A stretch of DNA of 63,846 nt, filler included, from Gemmatimonadota bacterium (GCA_003697105.1; 5 parts of 5 records of this genome joined end to end with filler, not necessarily neighbours in it), one strand, 5' to 3'; shown: positions 11,923-57,865, counted from the whole stretch's first letter. Notes: generated from the letters alone by a model not told the origin. Translations and numbers: made by a program.

Positions 11923-12022
11923 NNNNNNNNNNNNNNNNNNNNNNNNNNNNNNNNNNNNNNNNNNNNTTAATTAATTAANNNNNNNNNNNNNNNNNNNNNN
12001 NNNNNNNNNNNNNNNNNNNNNN
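11923..12022. other. Assembly gap with TTAATTAATTAA linker
   Basis: N runs around an all-frame stop linker. Confidence 0.99.
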
Positions 12023-17979: not shown

Positions 17980-19716
17980 ATGCTTGAAAACTATAATGAA
18001 TTAATCACCGGTTTAGATCATGTTATAGGGGACATTTTACAGCTCGCCCACCAACGGCATTTGACGACGCTTACTCAATTCCTGACAGATCATGTTCGCT
18101 TAAAATTGCAAAAAAACGAGTTTTACATTGTCGTTTTAGGAGAGTTTAACGCCGGTAAATCTTCGCTAATCAATGCGTTACTTCAGAAGGATGTCCTTCC
18201 CACATCGGTTCGTCCGACGACGGCAACACTCAATGTGATCACCTATGGCGAATCTGCCCAAGCCACTGCCGTGGGTTATGATGGAACAACGACACCCATT
18301 GAACTTGACCAGTTGCGGAATTACGTGACCGTAAGCGGCAGCCACACGGAAAAAGTCGCACAGGTGAACATCGAATATCCCCTAGATATGTTAAAAAATG
18401 GGGTCATCCTCGTGGACACGCCGGGAGTGAATGACATCAATCTGCAACGCACCGAGATCACGTCACACTACTTACCCAAAGCCGATGCCGCGTTATTTGT
18501 AATGGATTGTAAACAACCGATTAGCCTCTCCCAACTCCAATTTTTAAAGGAAAACGTGTTGGATAGTACCATCCAAAAGATATTTTTTATCCTGACCAAG
18601 ATCGATCAGGTGGAAGAAGGGGAACGCGATGAGGTGCTAGCTTATGTTCGCGAAGAATTGAGCCGGGTGGTGGATCAACCTAAAGTATTTCCGTTTTCAG
18701 CAACCCGCGCCATAGCAGACCCGACCGACTACTATTACCAATATTTTCGGGATTCTCTGAATCAGTTTTTGGCACAAGATAAGGGTAACTTGGTACTCCT
18801 GAGCGGGCTAGCCAGTGCTCAGAATGCCATCAACACACTGAAACGGAGCGTGGCACTGGAAGAAAAAACGGTAAGTGACACGCTGGCAGATTTAGATGCA
18901 AAGATTGAAGCTATCCGCCCCCAAATTGAAGCCAAACAACGCGAAAAACAGCAATTGATTCAAGCAATTGACGATAAAATTGAGGAAGTAAACGGGTATT
19001 TTGTTTCCAGTTTACAGGTATTTACTCATGAATTTTCTCAAAAAATAGAAGATGAAATTCAAACAGCGAATGTGGATGATCTGAAAAAGTATTTGGCGGG
19101 GTTTGTGGAAAGCCGGTTTCGGGAGTGGCTCGATACAGAAAACCAGCGAATTCAAGACGAATTACGGAATTTTACTGCCGGAATTTTGCAACAGACCGGA
19201 GAAATTTTGAAAGAATTAGAAGACCAATTTGCCCAACTCACGGAAATTCCGGCAAAACTTGACCTTGATATGACATACTTCACTCATGATGTCGCACTAT
19301 TTGTGGGCGAGGGGCTGATCATCTTGTTTAGTTTTTCATTACTCTCCGCACCATTCGCCATCATTAGCACCATTTTAGGTGGTGGAGCGCTTTATACCTA
19401 CATGCGGGATTTGCGTCACGAAAAATTTCGAGAAGAATCGATCAAACGCACCCGGCAAGCCATTACCGAAACAAGTGAAACGCTGAAACCAAATGTTTAC
19501 CAGCAATTGAGTGAATATGCCAATCAACTAAAAACGTATGTGAATGATACGATTGAAACATCCATTCACTCTTTGGAAACCACCGTGGATCATATTCGCC
19601 AGCAAAAAACGCGTGAGGGCACGCCGGTAACAGAACAGCGCCGGCAACTGGCAGAGCTGAACAATCAAATCGCCCAATTAGAGGACAAACTCCGGTCAAT
19701 CCGTCAGAAAATATGA
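17980..19716 (+). CDS. Bacterial dynamin-like GTPase
   Basis: G1 GEFNAGKSS, G2 PTT, G3 DTPG, G4 TKID; helical stalk with hydrophobic paddle. Confidence 0.9.
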   Translation: MLENYNELITGLDHVIGDILQLAHQRHLTTLTQFLTDHVRLKLQKNEFYIVVLGEFNAGKSSLINALLQKDVLPTSVRPTTATLNVITYGESAQATAVGYDGTTTPIELDQLRNYVTVSGSHTEKVAQVNIEYPLDMLKNGVILVDTPGVNDINLQRTEITSHYLPKADAALFVMDCKQPISLSQLQFLKENVLDSTIQKIFFILTKIDQVEEGERDEVLAYVREELSRVVDQPKVFPFSATRAIADPTDYYYQYFRDSLNQFLAQDKGNLVLLSGLASAQNAINTLKRSVALEEKTVSDTLADLDAKIEAIRPQIEAKQREKQQLIQAIDDKIEEVNGYFVSSLQVFTHEFSQKIEDEIQTANVDDLKKYLAGFVESRFREWLDTENQRIQDELRNFTAGILQQTGEILKELEDQFAQLTEIPAKLDLDMTYFTHDVALFVGEGLIILFSFSLLSAPFAIISTILGGGALYTYMRDLRHEKFREESIKRTRQAITETSETLKPNVYQQLSEYANQLKTYVNDTIETSIHSLETTVDHIRQQKTREGTPVTEQRRQLAELNNQIAQLEDKLRSIRQKI

Positions 19717-19876: not shown

Positions 19877-19953
19877 GGCGGGTTGGAGAAGTTAGGTATC
19901 TCGTCTGGCTCATGACCAGAAGATCCCCCGTTCGAATCGGGGACCCGCTACCA
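19877..19953 (+). tRNA. tRNA with CAT anticodon (Met; atypical initiator-like)
   Basis: Full cloverleaf: acceptor GGCGGGT/ACCCGCT, D stem GAGA/TCTC, anticodon stem TCTGG/CCAGA with loop CTCATGA, T arm CCCCG-TTCGAAT-CGGGG, encoded A-CCA. Confidence 0.93.
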
Positions 19954-19954
19954 T

Positions 19955-19991
19955 AAAAAAGCCTCTCAATTTTGAAATTGAGAGGCTTTTT
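19955..19991. terminator. Bidirectional intrinsic terminator
   Basis: AAAAAAGCCTCTCAATTT / AAATTGAGAGGCTTTTT between the convergent tRNA and the HAMP gene. Confidence 0.88.
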
Positions 19992-20020: not shown

Positions 20021-21535
20021 TTACCGCTTTGCCCGAGCGCGGGTCAGCCGCTTCATTGCCGCCTGTAAGCTGGTCGCCAAGCGGGAGATAGAATCGGCTA
20101 ATGCCCCGATTTCATCTTCAGATTGGACATCAATTTTTAACTCCAAATCTCCCATACTGATTTTGTCGGCAAGTTCTGTCAAACGCACAATTGGACGTGT
20201 AATTCCTTGAGAAAATTGGTACGCAAGCCCGATTGCAATTAAACCGAAGACGGCAATAAAAATGATGGTAATCAAGCGGGTATTCCGTGTGGTTCTATCG
20301 ATTTCTGCGGCGGTTTCGGTCGCTTTCTTGTAGAATTCTTCCACACTGGCGCCAACACCCACCCAACCGAAACCTTCCGGGTACGTATATCCCCCGTTAA
20401 AGTAACGGATGGGGGCATATGCCACGAACAAGTTTTTACCTTCCCAAAAGTATTCAATGGAGCCGGGTTCACCTTGGGCAACCCGGTTTGGAATTTTCAC
20501 GATCTCTGTAAATTGCGGAAATTCAGCCAGCACATCTTTCAAAGCAACTAAATTCACTGGGTGGCTCAGGAACGGGTCTTTCAAGTGGTTTGATGCAGAC
20601 GCTGCCGGAAAAGGATTACCATTTTTATCCACACCCCGAATAAACCAATGTTGGTTATTGGCAATAAACCATCCTTCGTTATCCACAATGTAGGCTTCAT
20701 TTCCGGCTTCAGGGTCGGGGATTAAACTGTATCGTTTTTCAGTGGGCACAATATGCGCCACAAATTCCATCAGGTGGGTATGGTTCAAAGCAAGCCCAAT
20801 GACCCCATCAAACGTACCATCATTTTTGAAGACAGGCATCGCAAAGCGGACAATGCCTTGGAAGGGTTTGCCTTTTGCCTCACGCAGATTGGGACCACGT
20901 GTGAGCACATCATCTTGCATCAATACATCATCCATTGTCCGGTAGCGCCCAATCACATGCGAGACAAAAATTTCCCCTTGGCGTGTTCCCGTTAGTTTTT
21001 TTGCCTCCTCAAAATACGTTTCTGCCTTAAAATTTGTATTTTGGCGGACACTCACATTCCGCAAACGCGGCGGATTTTCATCCAGAACAATTCCATCGAT
21101 AACGCGCACCTGTTCCCAACCGGCGGCATCTACATACACTACTTCCGCATAGATGGGTAGGTCAACCCGTTCTTCTTCCCCCGTATTTGGATTGCGGCGC
21201 CATACCTCGCGGACCCGGGTACGAGCGAAGTTCTCATAAACTTCCACATCGCGTGGCAGAAGCGCCAAGGCCCGCAGGTCATCTTCGCGTTCACGCAGGA
21301 AATCCGCTATCTGTTCCGCAATTTCAAACGTACGCAGTTCAATAGCTTCGGTGGACTTTTCATTGAGCGCGGCTTTACTATCTTCAACTGCCCGTGTACC
21401 CACATCCGTGATCCGACTGAGTGCAAACCAGCCAAAGATCATCAACGGCACCAATGAAAGAATAATAAATAGGGAAAATACCCGGAATGAAATGCTTTTG
21501 GGTAGAGAAAAGGAAAAACGCTTGCCTTCAGCCAT
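20021..21535 (-). CDS. Membrane sensor: TM, large Cache-like periplasmic domain, TM, HAMP; no output domain
   Basis: Two TM helices, VAYAPI...GWVGVG Cache-type strands, ITRPIVRLTELADKISMGDL...DEIGALA HAMP, stop about 15 aa later. Confidence 0.85.
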   Translation of the reverse strand: MAEGKRFSFSLPKSISFRVFSLFIILSLVPLMIFGWFALSRITDVGTRAVEDSKAALNEKSTEAIELRTFEIAEQIADFLREREDDLRALALLPRDVEVYENFARTRVREVWRRNPNTGEEERVDLPIYAEVVYVDAAGWEQVRVIDGIVLDENPPRLRNVSVRQNTNFKAETYFEEAKKLTGTRQGEIFVSHVIGRYRTMDDVLMQDDVLTRGPNLREAKGKPFQGIVRFAMPVFKNDGTFDGVIGLALNHTHLMEFVAHIVPTEKRYSLIPDPEAGNEAYIVDNEGWFIANNQHWFIRGVDKNGNPFPAASASNHLKDPFLSHPVNLVALKDVLAEFPQFTEIVKIPNRVAQGEPGSIEYFWEGKNLFVAYAPIRYFNGGYTYPEGFGWVGVGASVEEFYKKATETAAEIDRTTRNTRLITIIFIAVFGLIAIGLAYQFSQGITRPIVRLTELADKISMGDLELKIDVQSEDEIGALADSISRLATSLQAAMKRLTRARAKR

Positions 21536-21558
21536 AAGTCCCTGGATCTCCTTTCGGC

Positions 21559-22560
21559 TCAGTCTAAGATAATCTGCTTAAAGCGTCGGATTGTTTTGAT
21601 TCGATTCGAACTGACCTCATTCCAATCGATCACGAGCGCACGGTCTAATGCGTTTTTAACAGTTGCTCGATCAACACCTGTTGGGGGCGCCACATCAGAA
21701 CGGGCGGATAAAAATGAACCCTCACGTGCCAGAAGCTCTTGGCCTTCCGGGGATAACACATAATCGATAAATGTTTCCGCACCCTTAATATTATCCGAAG
21801 TTTGGGTAATCGCAATCGGACTCGGAATCAAGACAATACCATCTTCAGGATAGATAATTTCCAAGGGGCTTCCCGCCACTTTTTTGGAACGTGCCACATA
21901 ATCCAGCAAGATCGCCACTTGGAATTCACCTTTTTCCAACCGGTCGGCGACTTCACCATTACTGTTTGCAATCACAATGTGGTTAGCGCCTAATGCCTCA
22001 ATAAATTCCCAGCCTTTTTGCTCCACCATTGCCGCTAACCATGCCAACGCCGATCCGGAACGGCGCGGGTCGGGTGAGATAATATTATCTTTCCAGACCG
22101 AATCCTGTAAATCGGACCATAACCGCGGTGCCGCTTCGGGTCGAACTTGATTTGTGTTATAGACAATACACATACTGATCAGACGACCGCCGTAATAATA
22201 ATTATTGGCATCCTTAAATTTTGTCGGAATATGGGAGCCTTCCGGCGAATCATATTGCCGTAAAAGACCCTGATCGATCAGCCGCAAATACTCAGAAGGG
22301 TCTGCCGCCCACACCAAATCCGCTTGTAACCCTTGGGGAGATTCAATTTCCAGCTCAATCCGGGAGCGTAGCGCGGTCGTTGATTCCCGAATAACTTCCA
22401 AATCCAGATCGGGATATGCCTTTTCAAACTCCCCTTCAATTTTTTCAATAATGGGTTGCGGCATGGAGGTATATAATGTTAGCATATTATCATTTTGTCC
22501 ATCGCATCCCCCTAGCCACAGAATAACGAGTCCTAATAGACCATAAGCCGCCCGTCTCAA
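21559..22560 (-). CDS. Lipoprotein solute-binding protein (Fe3+/AfuA-like cluster D)
   Basis: Lipobox LGGC, LTLYTSM, ADLVWAAD, IVYNT, PDPRRSGS, AETFIDYVLSPEGQ. Confidence 0.88.
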   Translation of the reverse strand: MRRAAYGLLGLVILWLGGCDGQNDNMLTLYTSMPQPIIEKIEGEFEKAYPDLDLEVIRESTTALRSRIELEIESPQGLQADLVWAADPSEYLRLIDQGLLRQYDSPEGSHIPTKFKDANNYYYGGRLISMCIVYNTNQVRPEAAPRLWSDLQDSVWKDNIISPDPRRSGSALAWLAAMVEQKGWEFIEALGANHIVIANSNGEVADRLEKGEFQVAILLDYVARSKKVAGSPLEIIYPEDGIVLIPSPIAITQTSDNIKGAETFIDYVLSPEGQELLAREGSFLSARSDVAPPTGVDRATVKNALDRALVIDWNEVSSNRIKTIRRFKQIILD

Positions 22561-22573
22561 GATTCATCCCTCC

Positions 22574-23449
22574 CTAATAGTTCTTTAATAGTGCGAAGAA
22601 GGTTTCTGTAAATGCTTTCATTTTTTCACCATCATCAATTTCCGGTTCTAGCAATTCTAGCAATTGGTTGGTCTTACTTTTGGGAAACTGGTCTAAGGAA
22701 GCATCAAGTTCTTCGACTTTTTCTTCCACAATGATGGGACCCATGGGACCGACCAATTTGGTCAGTTCATCGGAAATTTGGTCCAGAAATGCCGGGTCAA
22801 TCATCTCCTCATCCTGCGAAACCGCCTGCTGGGACTGAAGCATATAGGCATGTTCAATATCCGTTTTGTACACACTGAAAACCGCACCATGCTTCTCGGA
22901 TAGCTCTAGCAATTTCTCAAGGGCGGCATCCCCCTCAATGATATTTCCACTGCTATCGGCATAGGCATTTTCCCGCAGAATACCTTCCCCAAAAAAGATC
23001 GACCCTTCCCCTTGGTCATCATTGATCAAAATTTCAATATATCCCCAGTTTTCCTCATCTTGAACTTTGCTGATCAGCTTATTCAGCTTGACATAATCGG
23101 TGGTTAAACCTTCATGAAGGGGTTGCCGACCCGTCACCATTGCGCAAGTAACGGTTTGTTCACTTTCTAATTGATGAACACTGATCTGCCCATCGTTATC
23201 CCGGCATTTATGAAGCAAATTTTGGTAAGCAACTTTACCCCCCTTTAGCTCCTTTTTGGTGGTGCCTGAAACTTCCATGGCATTGATAATATTACCATTA
23301 TCCAGAAAAATATAGCCATAATATTCCCAGAAGCTCAATTTAACATATCCGGTAAACTCCTCGCTCACTAGATTGTTAATAAATTGAGTAATTTCAATAT
23401 AGCTCGTATATAAATTATCTTTCAGGATAACCCCGTTTGGAAATATCAT
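22574..23449 (-). CDS. Cytoplasmic protein with two tandem DUF4388/DUF2226-like domains and a C-terminal helical domain
   Basis: Internal repeat NLYTSYI...FTGYVKL...GYIFLDNGNI / GLTTDYV...NWGYIEI...GSIFFGEGIL; tail LTKLVGPMGPIIVEE. Confidence 0.65.
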   Translation of the reverse strand: MIFPNGVILKDNLYTSYIEITQFINNLVSEEFTGYVKLSFWEYYGYIFLDNGNIINAMEVSGTTKKELKGGKVAYQNLLHKCRDNDGQISVHQLESEQTVTCAMVTGRQPLHEGLTTDYVKLNKLISKVQDEENWGYIEILINDDQGEGSIFFGEGILRENAYADSSGNIIEGDAALEKLLELSEKHGAVFSVYKTDIEHAYMLQSQQAVSQDEEMIDPAFLDQISDELTKLVGPMGPIIVEEKVEELDASLDQFPKSKTNQLLELLEPEIDDGEKMKAFTETFFALLKNY

Positions 23450-24318
23450 TACTCAAAGGCTCCTTTAGAGAGTTTATCATAAATATAATGAATCTGCAAA
23501 GCTGGAATATCCAGATCGGGCATGTAGGTTTGGAACAGCGCCCAACCCGGGCAACCATTAATATCGACCATATAATAGGCTTGCTTACCAGCCTCAATCA
23601 AATCAAGCGCGGTCACACCCAAATCAAAGAGATTCACAATGGCGAGTGCAAGCTGTTTCAATTGGGGTGACGCCACACCCGGTTCTACCTGAATAGGTTG
23701 CGACCGGTTTGTGCGCCAATCTTCGGTCTGGCGGTACCGGTACAACACACCCGCAATGTCCCCGCCAATAACAAATACGCGAAGGTCTCGGGTATGGGGG
23801 AGATATTCTTGCAAATAGTAGGGCGCCGGAAGGGCTAAGAGCCGATCCCCTAATCCTGCCGTGTCTGCCTGAAAAAGCAACTGACCTCGCCCCCCTTTTG
23901 CCCGATCCGGTTTTGAAATGACGGTGTGTACCCGCTGAATGAAATCCACGGCACACCTGACATCCGAAGTAACAAGAGTACGAGGCACCAAAAACCCATA
24001 TTGAGCCAGAATAGAAGTCGAAACAATCTTGCTACTGCTATAAAAAAGAGCTTCCGGGGTATTAATGAAAAAAGCCTGATCCGAAAGCCAGATTAGTGCT
24101 TTCAGAATAATGGGATCAGACTCAAGCAAATCTAAAAACCCTTTAACAATTATCGCATCAACCTGTTGGTAATTAGTCCGAGAATCCGCTAAAAACGCGG
24201 AGACCAGTTCCCCCGGCGAAATGTAAACTGCCCGACCGTACTTTGCGGCAGATTGAAGCAACTGCGTGGTGCCCCAACCCAGTGTAGGGCTAATAATTCC
24301 AACGGTGTACGACGTCAA
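23449..24318 (-). CDS. RimK/LysX-like ATP-grasp ligase
   Basis: VPRT, KPDRAKGGRG, YLQEYL, DLRVFVIGG, DWRTN, DINGCPG; TAATG overlap with the next gene. Confidence 0.85.
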   Translation of the reverse strand: MTSYTVGIISPTLGWGTTQLLQSAAKYGRAVYISPGELVSAFLADSRTNYQQVDAIIVKGFLDLLESDPIILKALIWLSDQAFFINTPEALFYSSSKIVSTSILAQYGFLVPRTLVTSDVRCAVDFIQRVHTVISKPDRAKGGRGQLLFQADTAGLGDRLLALPAPYYLQEYLPHTRDLRVFVIGGDIAGVLYRYRQTEDWRTNRSQPIQVEPGVASPQLKQLALAIVNLFDLGVTALDLIEAGKQAYYMVDINGCPGWALFQTYMPDLDIPALQIHYIYDKLSKGAFE

Positions 24319-24345
24319 AGAATTTCAGACCTTTACTTCTGATCA

Positions 24346-24374
24346 ATACTATCAAAATTACGAGAGGTTGTCAA
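24346..24374 (-). promoter_or_regulatory. sigma70-type promoter of the ATP-grasp operon
   Basis: TTGACA (24374-24369), 17 nt including extended TG, TAGTAT (24351-24346). Confidence 0.7.
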
Positions 24375-31613: not shown

Positions 31614-31713
31614 NNNNNNNNNNNNNNNNNNNNNNNNNNNNNNNNNNNNNNNNNNNNTTAATTAATTAANNNNNNNNNNNNNNNNNNNNNNNNNNNNNNN
31701 NNNNNNNNNNNNN
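31614..31713. other. Assembly gap with linker
   Basis: N runs and TTAATTAATTAA. Confidence 0.99.
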
Positions 31714-43224: not shown

Positions 43225-43324
43225 NNNNNNNNNNNNNNNNNNNNNNNNNNNNNNNNNNNNNNNNNNNNTTAATTAATTAANNNNNNNNNNNNNNNNNNNN
43301 NNNNNNNNNNNNNNNNNNNNNNNN
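43225..43324. other. Assembly gap with linker
   Basis: N runs and TTAATTAATTAA. Confidence 0.99.
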
Positions 43325-57765: not shown

Positions 57766-57865
57766 NNNNNNNNNNNNNNNNNNNNNNNNNNNNNNNNNNN
57801 NNNNNNNNNTTAATTAATTAANNNNNNNNNNNNNNNNNNNNNNNNNNNNNNNNNNNNNNNNNNNN
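57766..57865. other. Assembly gap with linker
   Basis: N runs and TTAATTAATTAA. Confidence 0.99.

Follow-up and report, generated by a model that had tools for sequence, protein, structure and literature searches.

A HAMP-only receptor and a STAC-like adaptor in a Gemmatimonadota operon: a candidate bacterial counterpart of the archaeal Af1503/Af1502 pair

What does a membrane receptor talk to when its only cytoplasmic domain is a HAMP domain and its chain ends directly afterwards? The question is raised by a four-gene block of a Gemmatimonadota bacterium (GCA_003697105.1), found at positions 20,021 to 24,374 of a window of 63,846 nucleotides (nt), by which we mean the whole stretch of DNA that was analysed, a sequence of contigs joined end to end. 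The block lies on a single 19,591-base contig (window 12023-31613) and consists of four minus-strand open reading frames (ORFs) of 289, 291, 333 and 504 amino acids (aa), which encode, in the 5'-to-3' order of the operon, an ATP-grasp ligase, an adaptor, a solute-binding lipoprotein and the receptor; all features of the block given below are on that strand. Our results favour, with a probability that we place a little above even, a bacterial version of the Af1503/Af1502 pair of Archaeoglobus fulgidus, that is, a HAMP-only receptor with a STAC-domain partner which signals to proteins encoded elsewhere. The locus thereby allows a concrete and cheap test of how a HAMP receptor without an output domain finds its partner.

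The receptor (504 aa, 20021..21535) has a first transmembrane helix (TM1), a periplasmic double-Cache domain, a second transmembrane helix (TM2), a HAMP domain and a tail of 12 residues. Pfam recognizes the HAMP domain with 42.1 bits at residues 444-492 of 504, with only those 12 residues beyond it, and Pfam and the AlphaFold2 model (predicted local distance difference test, pLDDT, 81.6) agree that this is the sole cytoplasmic domain; in the model, TM2 continues into the two HAMP helices and the chain then ends. The periplasmic sensor, residues 43-415 (20291..21409; ~370 residues), scores 30.3 bits with Pfam dCache_1, under the cut-off of 45, and Foldseek matches the receptor model to many dCache ligand-binding domains with a probability of 1.00, E-values down to 6.8e-12 and TM-scores by target of at most 0.68. 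The PDB entries matched in this way are ligand complexes. A first-pass annotation of this DNA had described a Cache-like receptor with a bare HAMP tail, and the Pfam HAMP match, the dCache fold and the chain end after HAMP all bear this out.

The HAMP domain and its short basic tail (residues 442-504, 20024..20212) are of a specific type. When this segment was compared with all PDB sequences, the 17 best matches were all Af1503 constructs, the best with an E-value of 4.5e-10, and the first HAMP domain of another protein followed at 0.012; about half of the 58 residues aligned with Af1503 are identical, as read off the printed alignment. For years, Af1503 has served as the structural model of HAMP signalling. 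Within the clade of the receptor, the HAMP tail is the best-conserved region, with 71-81% identity versus 41-60% for the periplasmic domain, and the nearest relatives of the whole protein (P0158 and P0159) are 56-58% identical to it. In relatives of the sensor domain, the chain ends after HAMP or goes on with a coiled coil or with a GAF, histidine-kinase, GGDEF or PAS domain, and one Anaerolineae copy carries a methyl-accepting chemotaxis protein (MCP) domain; this variety points to a portable sensor that is used with many outputs. A tblastn search with the sensor domain against plasmids gave zero matches, and a search across 201 genomes with a kinase-bearing relative (P0207) was swamped by kinase-domain matches and is uninformative.

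Some relatives of the sensor deserve a description of their own. In the Anaerolineae loci L104 (3892-10296), L106 (149-5325) and L105 (4660-8668), they end in HAMP and a coiled coil, and the next genes encode HEAT-repeat proteins of very large size that also contain a cyclic-nucleotide-binding domain. These receptors are a further type that has no output domain and is accompanied by a conserved cytoplasmic protein. Alignment columns ~1000-1065 contain a C-terminal motif, LRIEIDE..K...V.EITE.EYF, that is common to HAMP-only (510-544 aa) and GAF-bearing relatives and is missing from the clade of the window's receptor.

The protein that would receive the signal from the HAMP domain is the adaptor (291 aa, 22574..23449), whose AlphaFold2 model (pLDDT 93.8) contains two PATAN-like alpha/beta domains followed by a STAC-like four-helix domain. 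This last domain, residues 215-291 (77 residues, 22577..22807), resembles STAC by structure and profile and is the predicted HAMP docking site; its helices, at residues 219-233, 237-247, 257-270 and 274-290, make up a bundle of two alpha-hairpins, and a GPM motif (G234, P235 and M236) is placed in the h1-h2 loop, which reads LVGPMGP. A STAC motif between helices 1 and 2 is also given in the accessible part of the description of the Af1502 structure (PMC4834066). In a structural alignment search with VIA-align, Af1502 (5a1q_B) was ranked second of 48,161 chains, with 68/68 residues aligned, a root-mean-square deviation of 3.0 and a Z-score of 6.7 that falls inside the search's background range for helical bundles. 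A profile built from seven STAC-like domains placed AF1502 first of 177,635 PDB sequences, with an alignment that runs through the GPxA motif at an E-value, 0.065, that makes the sequence support marginal. The G, P and M of the loop are invariant in the seven domains, of which five read GPMA. The structural, profile and motif lines are each weak alone, yet mutually consistent, and both the Af1503-type HAMP and the genomic coupling of the two genes fit in with them; we regard the STAC assignment of the adaptor C-terminal domain as moderately supported.

A model of the complex is in line with this assignment. Two HAMP tails (residues 440-504) were combined with the adaptor, each with a separate alignment, and the complex obtained a score of 0.65 (0.67, 0.65 and 0.62 in the individual runs), while the best of three controls reached 0.02. 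In calibration, 116 of 157 solved complexes reached the score mark, as did two of 215 mismatched pairs; these counts hold only roughly here because our model used its own alignments and three chains. The runs share at least 97% of their contacts with a partner pLDDT of at least 84, and in the modelled interface, adaptor residues 230-243, 270 and 272, where the GPM loop is found, contact the HAMP connector (460-464) and the second HAMP helix (485-498). Binding of the HAMP domain to the adaptor via the GPM loop is thus supported by modelling. The first-pass annotation had proposed that the HAMP tail recruits the adaptor and had suggested this very complex for modelling; the margin over the controls, together with the neighbourhoods in other phyla described next, backs that predicted recruitment. 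We know of no solved HAMP-STAC complex with which the model could be compared.

The genomic neighbourhoods place adaptor genes beside HAMP-protein genes well beyond this locus. The phylum is represented in our collection by three species genomes, the source genome (G000) and two sisters (G001 and G002, with the loci L005 and L006), and adaptor, binding protein and receptor occur in identical order in all three, despite a divergence of the proteins that leaves 37-46% identity. Scans of genomes and of metagenome contigs with a 7-row alignment gave 11 and 29 related loci. We examined 40 adaptor loci; two fragments (L034 and L035) and one repeat of L006 (L025) were left out. At least 3 kb of downstream DNA is available for 19 of the 40, and a HAMP protein is encoded downstream in 19/19; in the three such proteins that were checked with Pfam (L027, L030 and L007), HAMP is C-terminal. 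By script, Roadblock proteins are present in 16/19 of these loci and small GTPases in 14/19; further GTPases were found in G034 by Pfam and upstream of the adaptor in L060. The binding protein is present in two of the 19, those of the sister genomes, and the ligase in none.

At least four arrangements exist among the adaptor loci, and the commonest form is an eight-gene Anaerolineae-type operon. Its first half encodes a REC-PATAN-Roadblock protein, the adaptor, a 125-aa protein and a PATAN protein with a winged helix, and its second half a HAMP-terminal membrane protein, a Roadblock protein, a GTPase and another Roadblock protein. The protein that matches the receptor best in two of the Anaerolineae genomes is the HAMP-terminal protein of that same operon. 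Co-occurrence with Roadblock/MglB and MglA-like proteins, which the first-pass annotation had marked for examination, is therefore found in distant relatives, and its expectation that all four genes travel together holds for adaptor, binding protein and receptor in the three genomes of the phylum and fails for the ligase.

These neighbourhoods bear on the first two domains of the adaptor, residues 1-107 (23129..23449) and about 108-200 (22850..23128), both alpha/beta in the model, where the second spans residues 109-195, and related to one another as an internal repeat (E 2e-4). DUF4388 (PF14332, PATAN/PatA_N) matches residues 18-106 with 16.7 bits, short of the gathering cut-off of 25; among the homologues, those of G034 (31.6), L026 (31.4) and L027 (28.9) exceed it, those of G001 and G002 score 22-23 bits, and in the L027 homologue (L027:4593-5609) the match is on the second domain. 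The adaptor is therefore a distant relative of PATAN and no member by the curated threshold. Pfam gave no match to DUF2226 (PF09987) in the adaptor itself, and the G034 homologue reaches 24 bits with a cut-off of 22. The nearest Atlas clusters carry PatA_N/DUF2226, and the structure match is a DUF2226 cluster (TM 0.63), so that the earlier description of a duplicated, DUF4388/DUF2226-like protein agrees with both the repeat and the clusters. Matches of the adaptor model to a clamp and to GFP in a Foldseek search of the PDB were rejected as spurious (TM <=0.16). The family is sizeable and uncharacterised: in a search of 1.84 billion sequences, a profile of eight homologues found 983 representatives with E <= 0.001, of which 186 reach E <= 1e-30, and the closest relative (P0002) has 72% identity. 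Relatives of the adaptor carry PF26309 as a precomputed Pfam assignment.

Away from the locus, the source genome also encodes MglA-like GTPases, six in number, on contigs C172, C119, C54, C59, C67 and C147, together with an MglB and, on C54, a PilB-like ATPase; one MglA-like gene adjoins the MglB and PilB-like genes, and another adjoins a gene for a strong DUF4388 protein. A cluster at G000:C119:6445-14257 (L020) encodes a tetratricopeptide repeat (TPR) protein, an extended MglA-like GTPase (371 aa), a DUF4388 protein of 378 aa that scores 92 bits and also matches Roadblock weakly, an unknown protein of 447 aa and an 837-aa TPR protein. Two adjoining paralogues of the adaptor N-terminal domain, 280 and 200 aa long, are encoded at G000:C14:41397-42857 (L018 6398-7858), where a DUF58/VWA gene flanks them on one side and the gene of an NtrC-type sigma-54 response regulator on the other; they match the adaptor family profile with E-values of 1.5e-13 and 2.1e-12.

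The gene between adaptor and receptor encodes a solute-binding protein (SBP) of 333 aa (21559..22560), which Pfam, TIGR and the PDB place in the Fe3+/AfuA/PhnS2/P5PA cluster and which we propose as a co-sensor. It matches SBP_bac_6 with 102.3 bits, scores 134.7 bits with the phnS2 equivalog (TIGR03261), below the cut-off of 392.75, has P5PA (6wce) as its PDB match (E 6.8e-22), and begins with a lipoprotein-like signal that ends in LGGC. Membership of this cluster makes a phosphate- or phosphonate-bearing ligand, or iron, likely. A sensory role for the lipoprotein is favoured by the synteny of the three genomes and by the Anaerolineae relatives of the sensor, which have an SBP of a different family directly upstream in two of the six loci with upstream DNA. 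Double-Cache domains usually bind their ligands directly, as those of chemoreceptors do with small ligands and as the ligand complexes matched by our model illustrate, and the lipoprotein might instead be an extra SBP for an importer encoded elsewhere, the two genes sharing an operon while their products make no contact and the receptor senses a ligand of its own. The identities allow for this, being about as high to importer-linked paralogues (35-38%) as to the sister triplet copies (37-39%), and the tree discussed below resolves no triplet clade. We nevertheless judge it distinctly unlikely, since it leaves a gene order maintained in 3/3 genomes at such protein divergence and the unrelated SBP family beside the Anaerolineae sensors to be explained. 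The first-pass annotation had named an ordinary ATP-binding cassette (ABC) importer encoded elsewhere as the alternative owner of the lipoprotein: a complete PhnS2/PhnU2/ATPase importer is indeed present on contig C53, headed by a paralogue of the lipoprotein (E 1.7e-66), and this importer possesses its own binding protein.

The same importer would also suit another explanation, in which receptor and adaptor serve to control the uptake of solutes. The lipoprotein would then either also work for the C53 importer or compete with it, and the module would tune this or another carrier. In the accessible text of the Af1502 study, the surroundings of Af1503-like receptors are rich in transport components and STAC is proposed as a regulator of solute transport (PMC4834066), and the available part of a report on CbrA has STAC docked beneath the transporter domain (10.64898/2026.03.10.710862); the lack of a GTPase gene at our locus would also be in keeping with such a role. 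However, a permease or ATPase cognate to the SBP is adjacent in 0/3 phylum genomes, the adaptor family occurs elsewhere beside Roadblock and GTPase genes rather than transporters, and the complex model puts the STAC-like domain on HAMP rather than on a carrier. A lone permease beside the G001 triplet was considered as the cognate transporter and rejected, being of the MalG/UgpE type, whereas a PhnU2 type fits this SBP class. Regulation of transport is, in our view, a decidedly doubtful account of the locus.

Several points weigh against the relation to Af1503/Af1502 that we favour, and the background-level Z-score and marginal E-value given above are among them. The adaptor's own loop, GPMGP, is without the alanine of LGPx(x)A, and Pfam returned nothing meaningful for the seven STAC-like domains. 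The PATAN score is under the Pfam cut-off, and neither Foldseek against the PDB nor the structural alignment search found a solved fold for the two N-terminal domains of the adaptor. A complex model expresses confidence and is no proof of binding. Most of the 19 loci represent one Anaerolineae-type operon and are therefore kin, so that the counts overstate their independence, and the HAMP-terminal proteins of the GTPase operons (Anaerolineae and G034) display no preference for Af1503, with HtrII and Tsr scoring alike. No GTPase or Roadblock gene was found at this locus or at either sister locus, and the downstream step therefore rests on distant relatives. As to the lipoprotein, direct ligand binding by double-Cache domains may make it unneeded. 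In a tree of 11 binding proteins, from which one 272-aa fragment was excluded, those of the triplets form a single clade in 31% of bootstrap trees; this grouping is unrejected (approximately unbiased test, p-AU 0.384) and the basal forks are open.

The layout of the block is confirmed. The ligase and adaptor genes overlap by 1 nt in a TAATG stop/start, gaps of 13 and 23 nt separate adaptor from binding protein and binding protein from receptor, and a Shine-Dalgarno-like motif is present at the start of all four genes. A sigma-70-like promoter (24346..24374), with TTGACA, a 17-nt spacer, TAGTAT and a TG upstream, matches at 10/12 positions; it is intergenic, before the ligase start, and is the top site of the consensus scan of the region, in which promoter-like sites number 12 versus 9.0 in shuffles (sd 2.9), i.e. 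no excess. At the other end, an intrinsic terminator (19955..19991) is formed by a hairpin of -23.4 kcal/mol (z -6.55) and a T run; none of 200 shuffles folds as stably, and the consensus scan did not list it. The co-oriented genes with gaps of -1, 13 and 23 nt, the near-consensus promoter and the terminator had all been described by the first-pass annotation, and our coordinates and scans agree with it on each. It had also remarked that the block is without permease, ATPase, kinase, cyclase or MCP output, and genes of all these kinds, those for ABC ATPases included, are likewise missing from the ORF list and Pfam matches of the flanks.

Upstream, the block is flanked by an S49 peptidase gene. 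Downstream are a dynamin-like GTPase gene (window 17980-19716, plus strand; Dynamin_N, 114 bits), which is convergent toward the operon terminator, and a tRNA-Met gene (19877-19953, plus strand) that sits between the two. In both sisters, the position directly upstream of the adaptor, held here by the ligase, is occupied by an SLT lytic transglycosylase gene (L005 1400-2107, L006 7185-7883). Paired N runs at window 11923-12022, 31614-31713, 43225-43324 and 57766-57865 mark the contig joins, and genes across them are therefore no genomic neighbours. Contigs of two DNA runs from one study, one of which may itself have yielded the DNA analysed here, span the junction of ligase and adaptor and reach 43 and 58 nt past it toward the adaptor; in the same two runs, the Logan contigs have gaps at 23342-23406 and 23216-23391, which says nothing either way, and no RNA run is listed as carrying the operon stretch.

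The ligase (289 aa, 23449..24318) is encoded by the first gene of the operon and is of the RimK/LysX type. It matches the RimK domain of Pfam (PF08443) with 56.6 bits over a cut-off of 21, scores below the cut-offs of both TIGR00768 (rimK_fam, 98.6 vs 143.4) and the RimK equivalog (28.2 vs 331), and has LysX/RimK as best PDB matches (E 2e-8). The nearest homologues are RimK/CofF-like proteins of methanogens (Methanomicrobiales, 28-33% identity), and the base composition of the gene resembles that of its neighbours. Its translational coupling to the adaptor, through TAATG and a Shine-Dalgarno motif within the ligase 3' end, the single upstream promoter and the contigs across the junction would suit an enzyme that is integral to the pathway, either adding amino acids to a pathway protein or making a small-molecule signal. 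Enzymes related to RimK and LysX attach amino acids to the C-termini of proteins, and such chemistry would lend itself to output or adaptation. However, the ligase is missing from all 19 related loci and was not found, with this protein as query, in the genomes of G001 (99% complete), G002 (93%) and G034 (99%), its closest kin are those of methanogens, and no protein of the operon ends in an acidic residue save the ligase itself. A search for RimK-like genes detected no other in the source genome, whose ribosomal protein S6 (G000:C101:43023-43544, minus strand) has an acidic tail of ~45 residues ending in Glu and is therefore a possible RimK-type substrate; taken together, these suggest that the ligase could be an S6-modifying enzyme. 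Missing from the related loci and not found in the three relatives' genomes, the ligase is by this comparison a divergent, lineage-specific local addition to the operon. The output role that the first-pass annotation had assigned to it finds no backing in these comparisons, and an integral function seems unlikely to us.

In the mechanism that we favour, the lipoprotein would bind a small anionic ligand in the periplasm, probably a phosphate or phosphonate compound or iron, and would report to the double-Cache domain much as LuxP acts for LuxQ. The signal would pass through TM2 into an Af1503-type HAMP four-helix bundle, whose fold is observed and whose signalling we infer, and the HAMP helices would hold the STAC-like bundle of the adaptor by its GPM loop, as the complex model and the neighbourhoods suggest. 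The PATAN-like domains may then relay the state of the receptor to partners encoded elsewhere, by extension from the operons of other phyla; the likeliest partner would be one of the six MglA-like GTPases with Roadblock regulators, or the pilus motor. A bolder version, which we regard as a long shot, is a kinase-free route in which a binding-protein-loaded Af1503-type receptor acts through HAMP and the STAC-PATAN adaptor on a Ras-like GTPase or pilus polarity switch, with the ligase covalently modifying a pathway component as adaptation or memory. If that were true, the ligase step would be comparable to receptor methylation in chemotaxis.

Overall, the first-pass interpretation is partly supported. 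Its statement that no characterised pathway has this composition overlooked the Af1503/Af1502 pair and the printed MglA/Roadblock/PATAN neighbourhoods, and comparison with such systems helps to situate the locus. A binding-protein-dependent ABC importer differs in that permease and ATPase genes are missing beside the present binding protein. A closer parallel for the periplasmic side is the LuxP-LuxQ type, in which a periplasmic binding protein is encoded beside a sensor with a tandem PAS/Cache periplasmic fold. Here, too, the binding-protein gene is next to a double-Cache sensor gene, a likeness in gene adjacency; unlike LuxQ, which is a hybrid kinase, the present receptor is without an enzyme.

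On the cytoplasmic side, the actinobacterial conservon (CvnA-D) is described, in the accessible portions of two papers, as a HAMP membrane sensor for which Roadblock proteins and a small GTPase take the place of a response regulator (PMC4316618; PMC13343842). Our system likewise links a HAMP membrane sensor with the Roadblock/GTPase family, here via the loci of the adaptor relatives, but CvnA retains a histidine-kinase module that the present receptor lacks, and CvnB- and CvnD-like genes are not adjacent. The MglA/MglB polarity switches with PATAN (Myxococcus, Thermus and the PatA type of Synechocystis) are similar in that relatives of the adaptor lie beside genes for Roadblock, MglA-like GTPase and REC-PATAN-Roadblock proteins. 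In the available text on these systems, MglA and MglB genes occur near PATAN genes (PMC4316618), and PATAN is an output domain in Synechocystis that binds PilB1 and PilC (10.1101/2021.06.11.447907). The present locus differs from them by its missing GTPase, receiver and Roadblock genes and by a PATAN score below the Pfam cut-off, and the accessible portions of this literature describe no link to a HAMP-only receptor or a binding protein. In a literature search that scarcely covered subscription journals, no paper was found in which STAC is combined with PATAN or in which such a module comes together with a binding protein.

The closest relation is with Af1503/Af1502, a functionally uncharacterised archaeal pair. 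Both receptors stop right after HAMP, the HAMP sequence is specifically Af1503-like, the partner has a four-helix domain whose h1-h2 loop resembles the GPx(x)A type and for which Af1502 is the top PDB profile match (at that marginal E-value), and, according to the part of the Af1502 study open to us, receptor and partner are there, too, encoded in one operon that includes a transport-type component (PMC4834066). Unlike the archaeal pair, the present system is bacterial, has a double-Cache sensor of ~370 residues, and places a binding-protein gene between those of adaptor and receptor. Furthermore, the STAC-like domain is here the C-terminal part of an adaptor that measures 291 residues and begins with two PATAN-like domains, whereas in the archaeal pair STAC stands alone with 60-90 residues, and this STAC-like/PATAN-like fusion points to a possible kinase-free path from extracellular chemistry to polarity or pilus switches.

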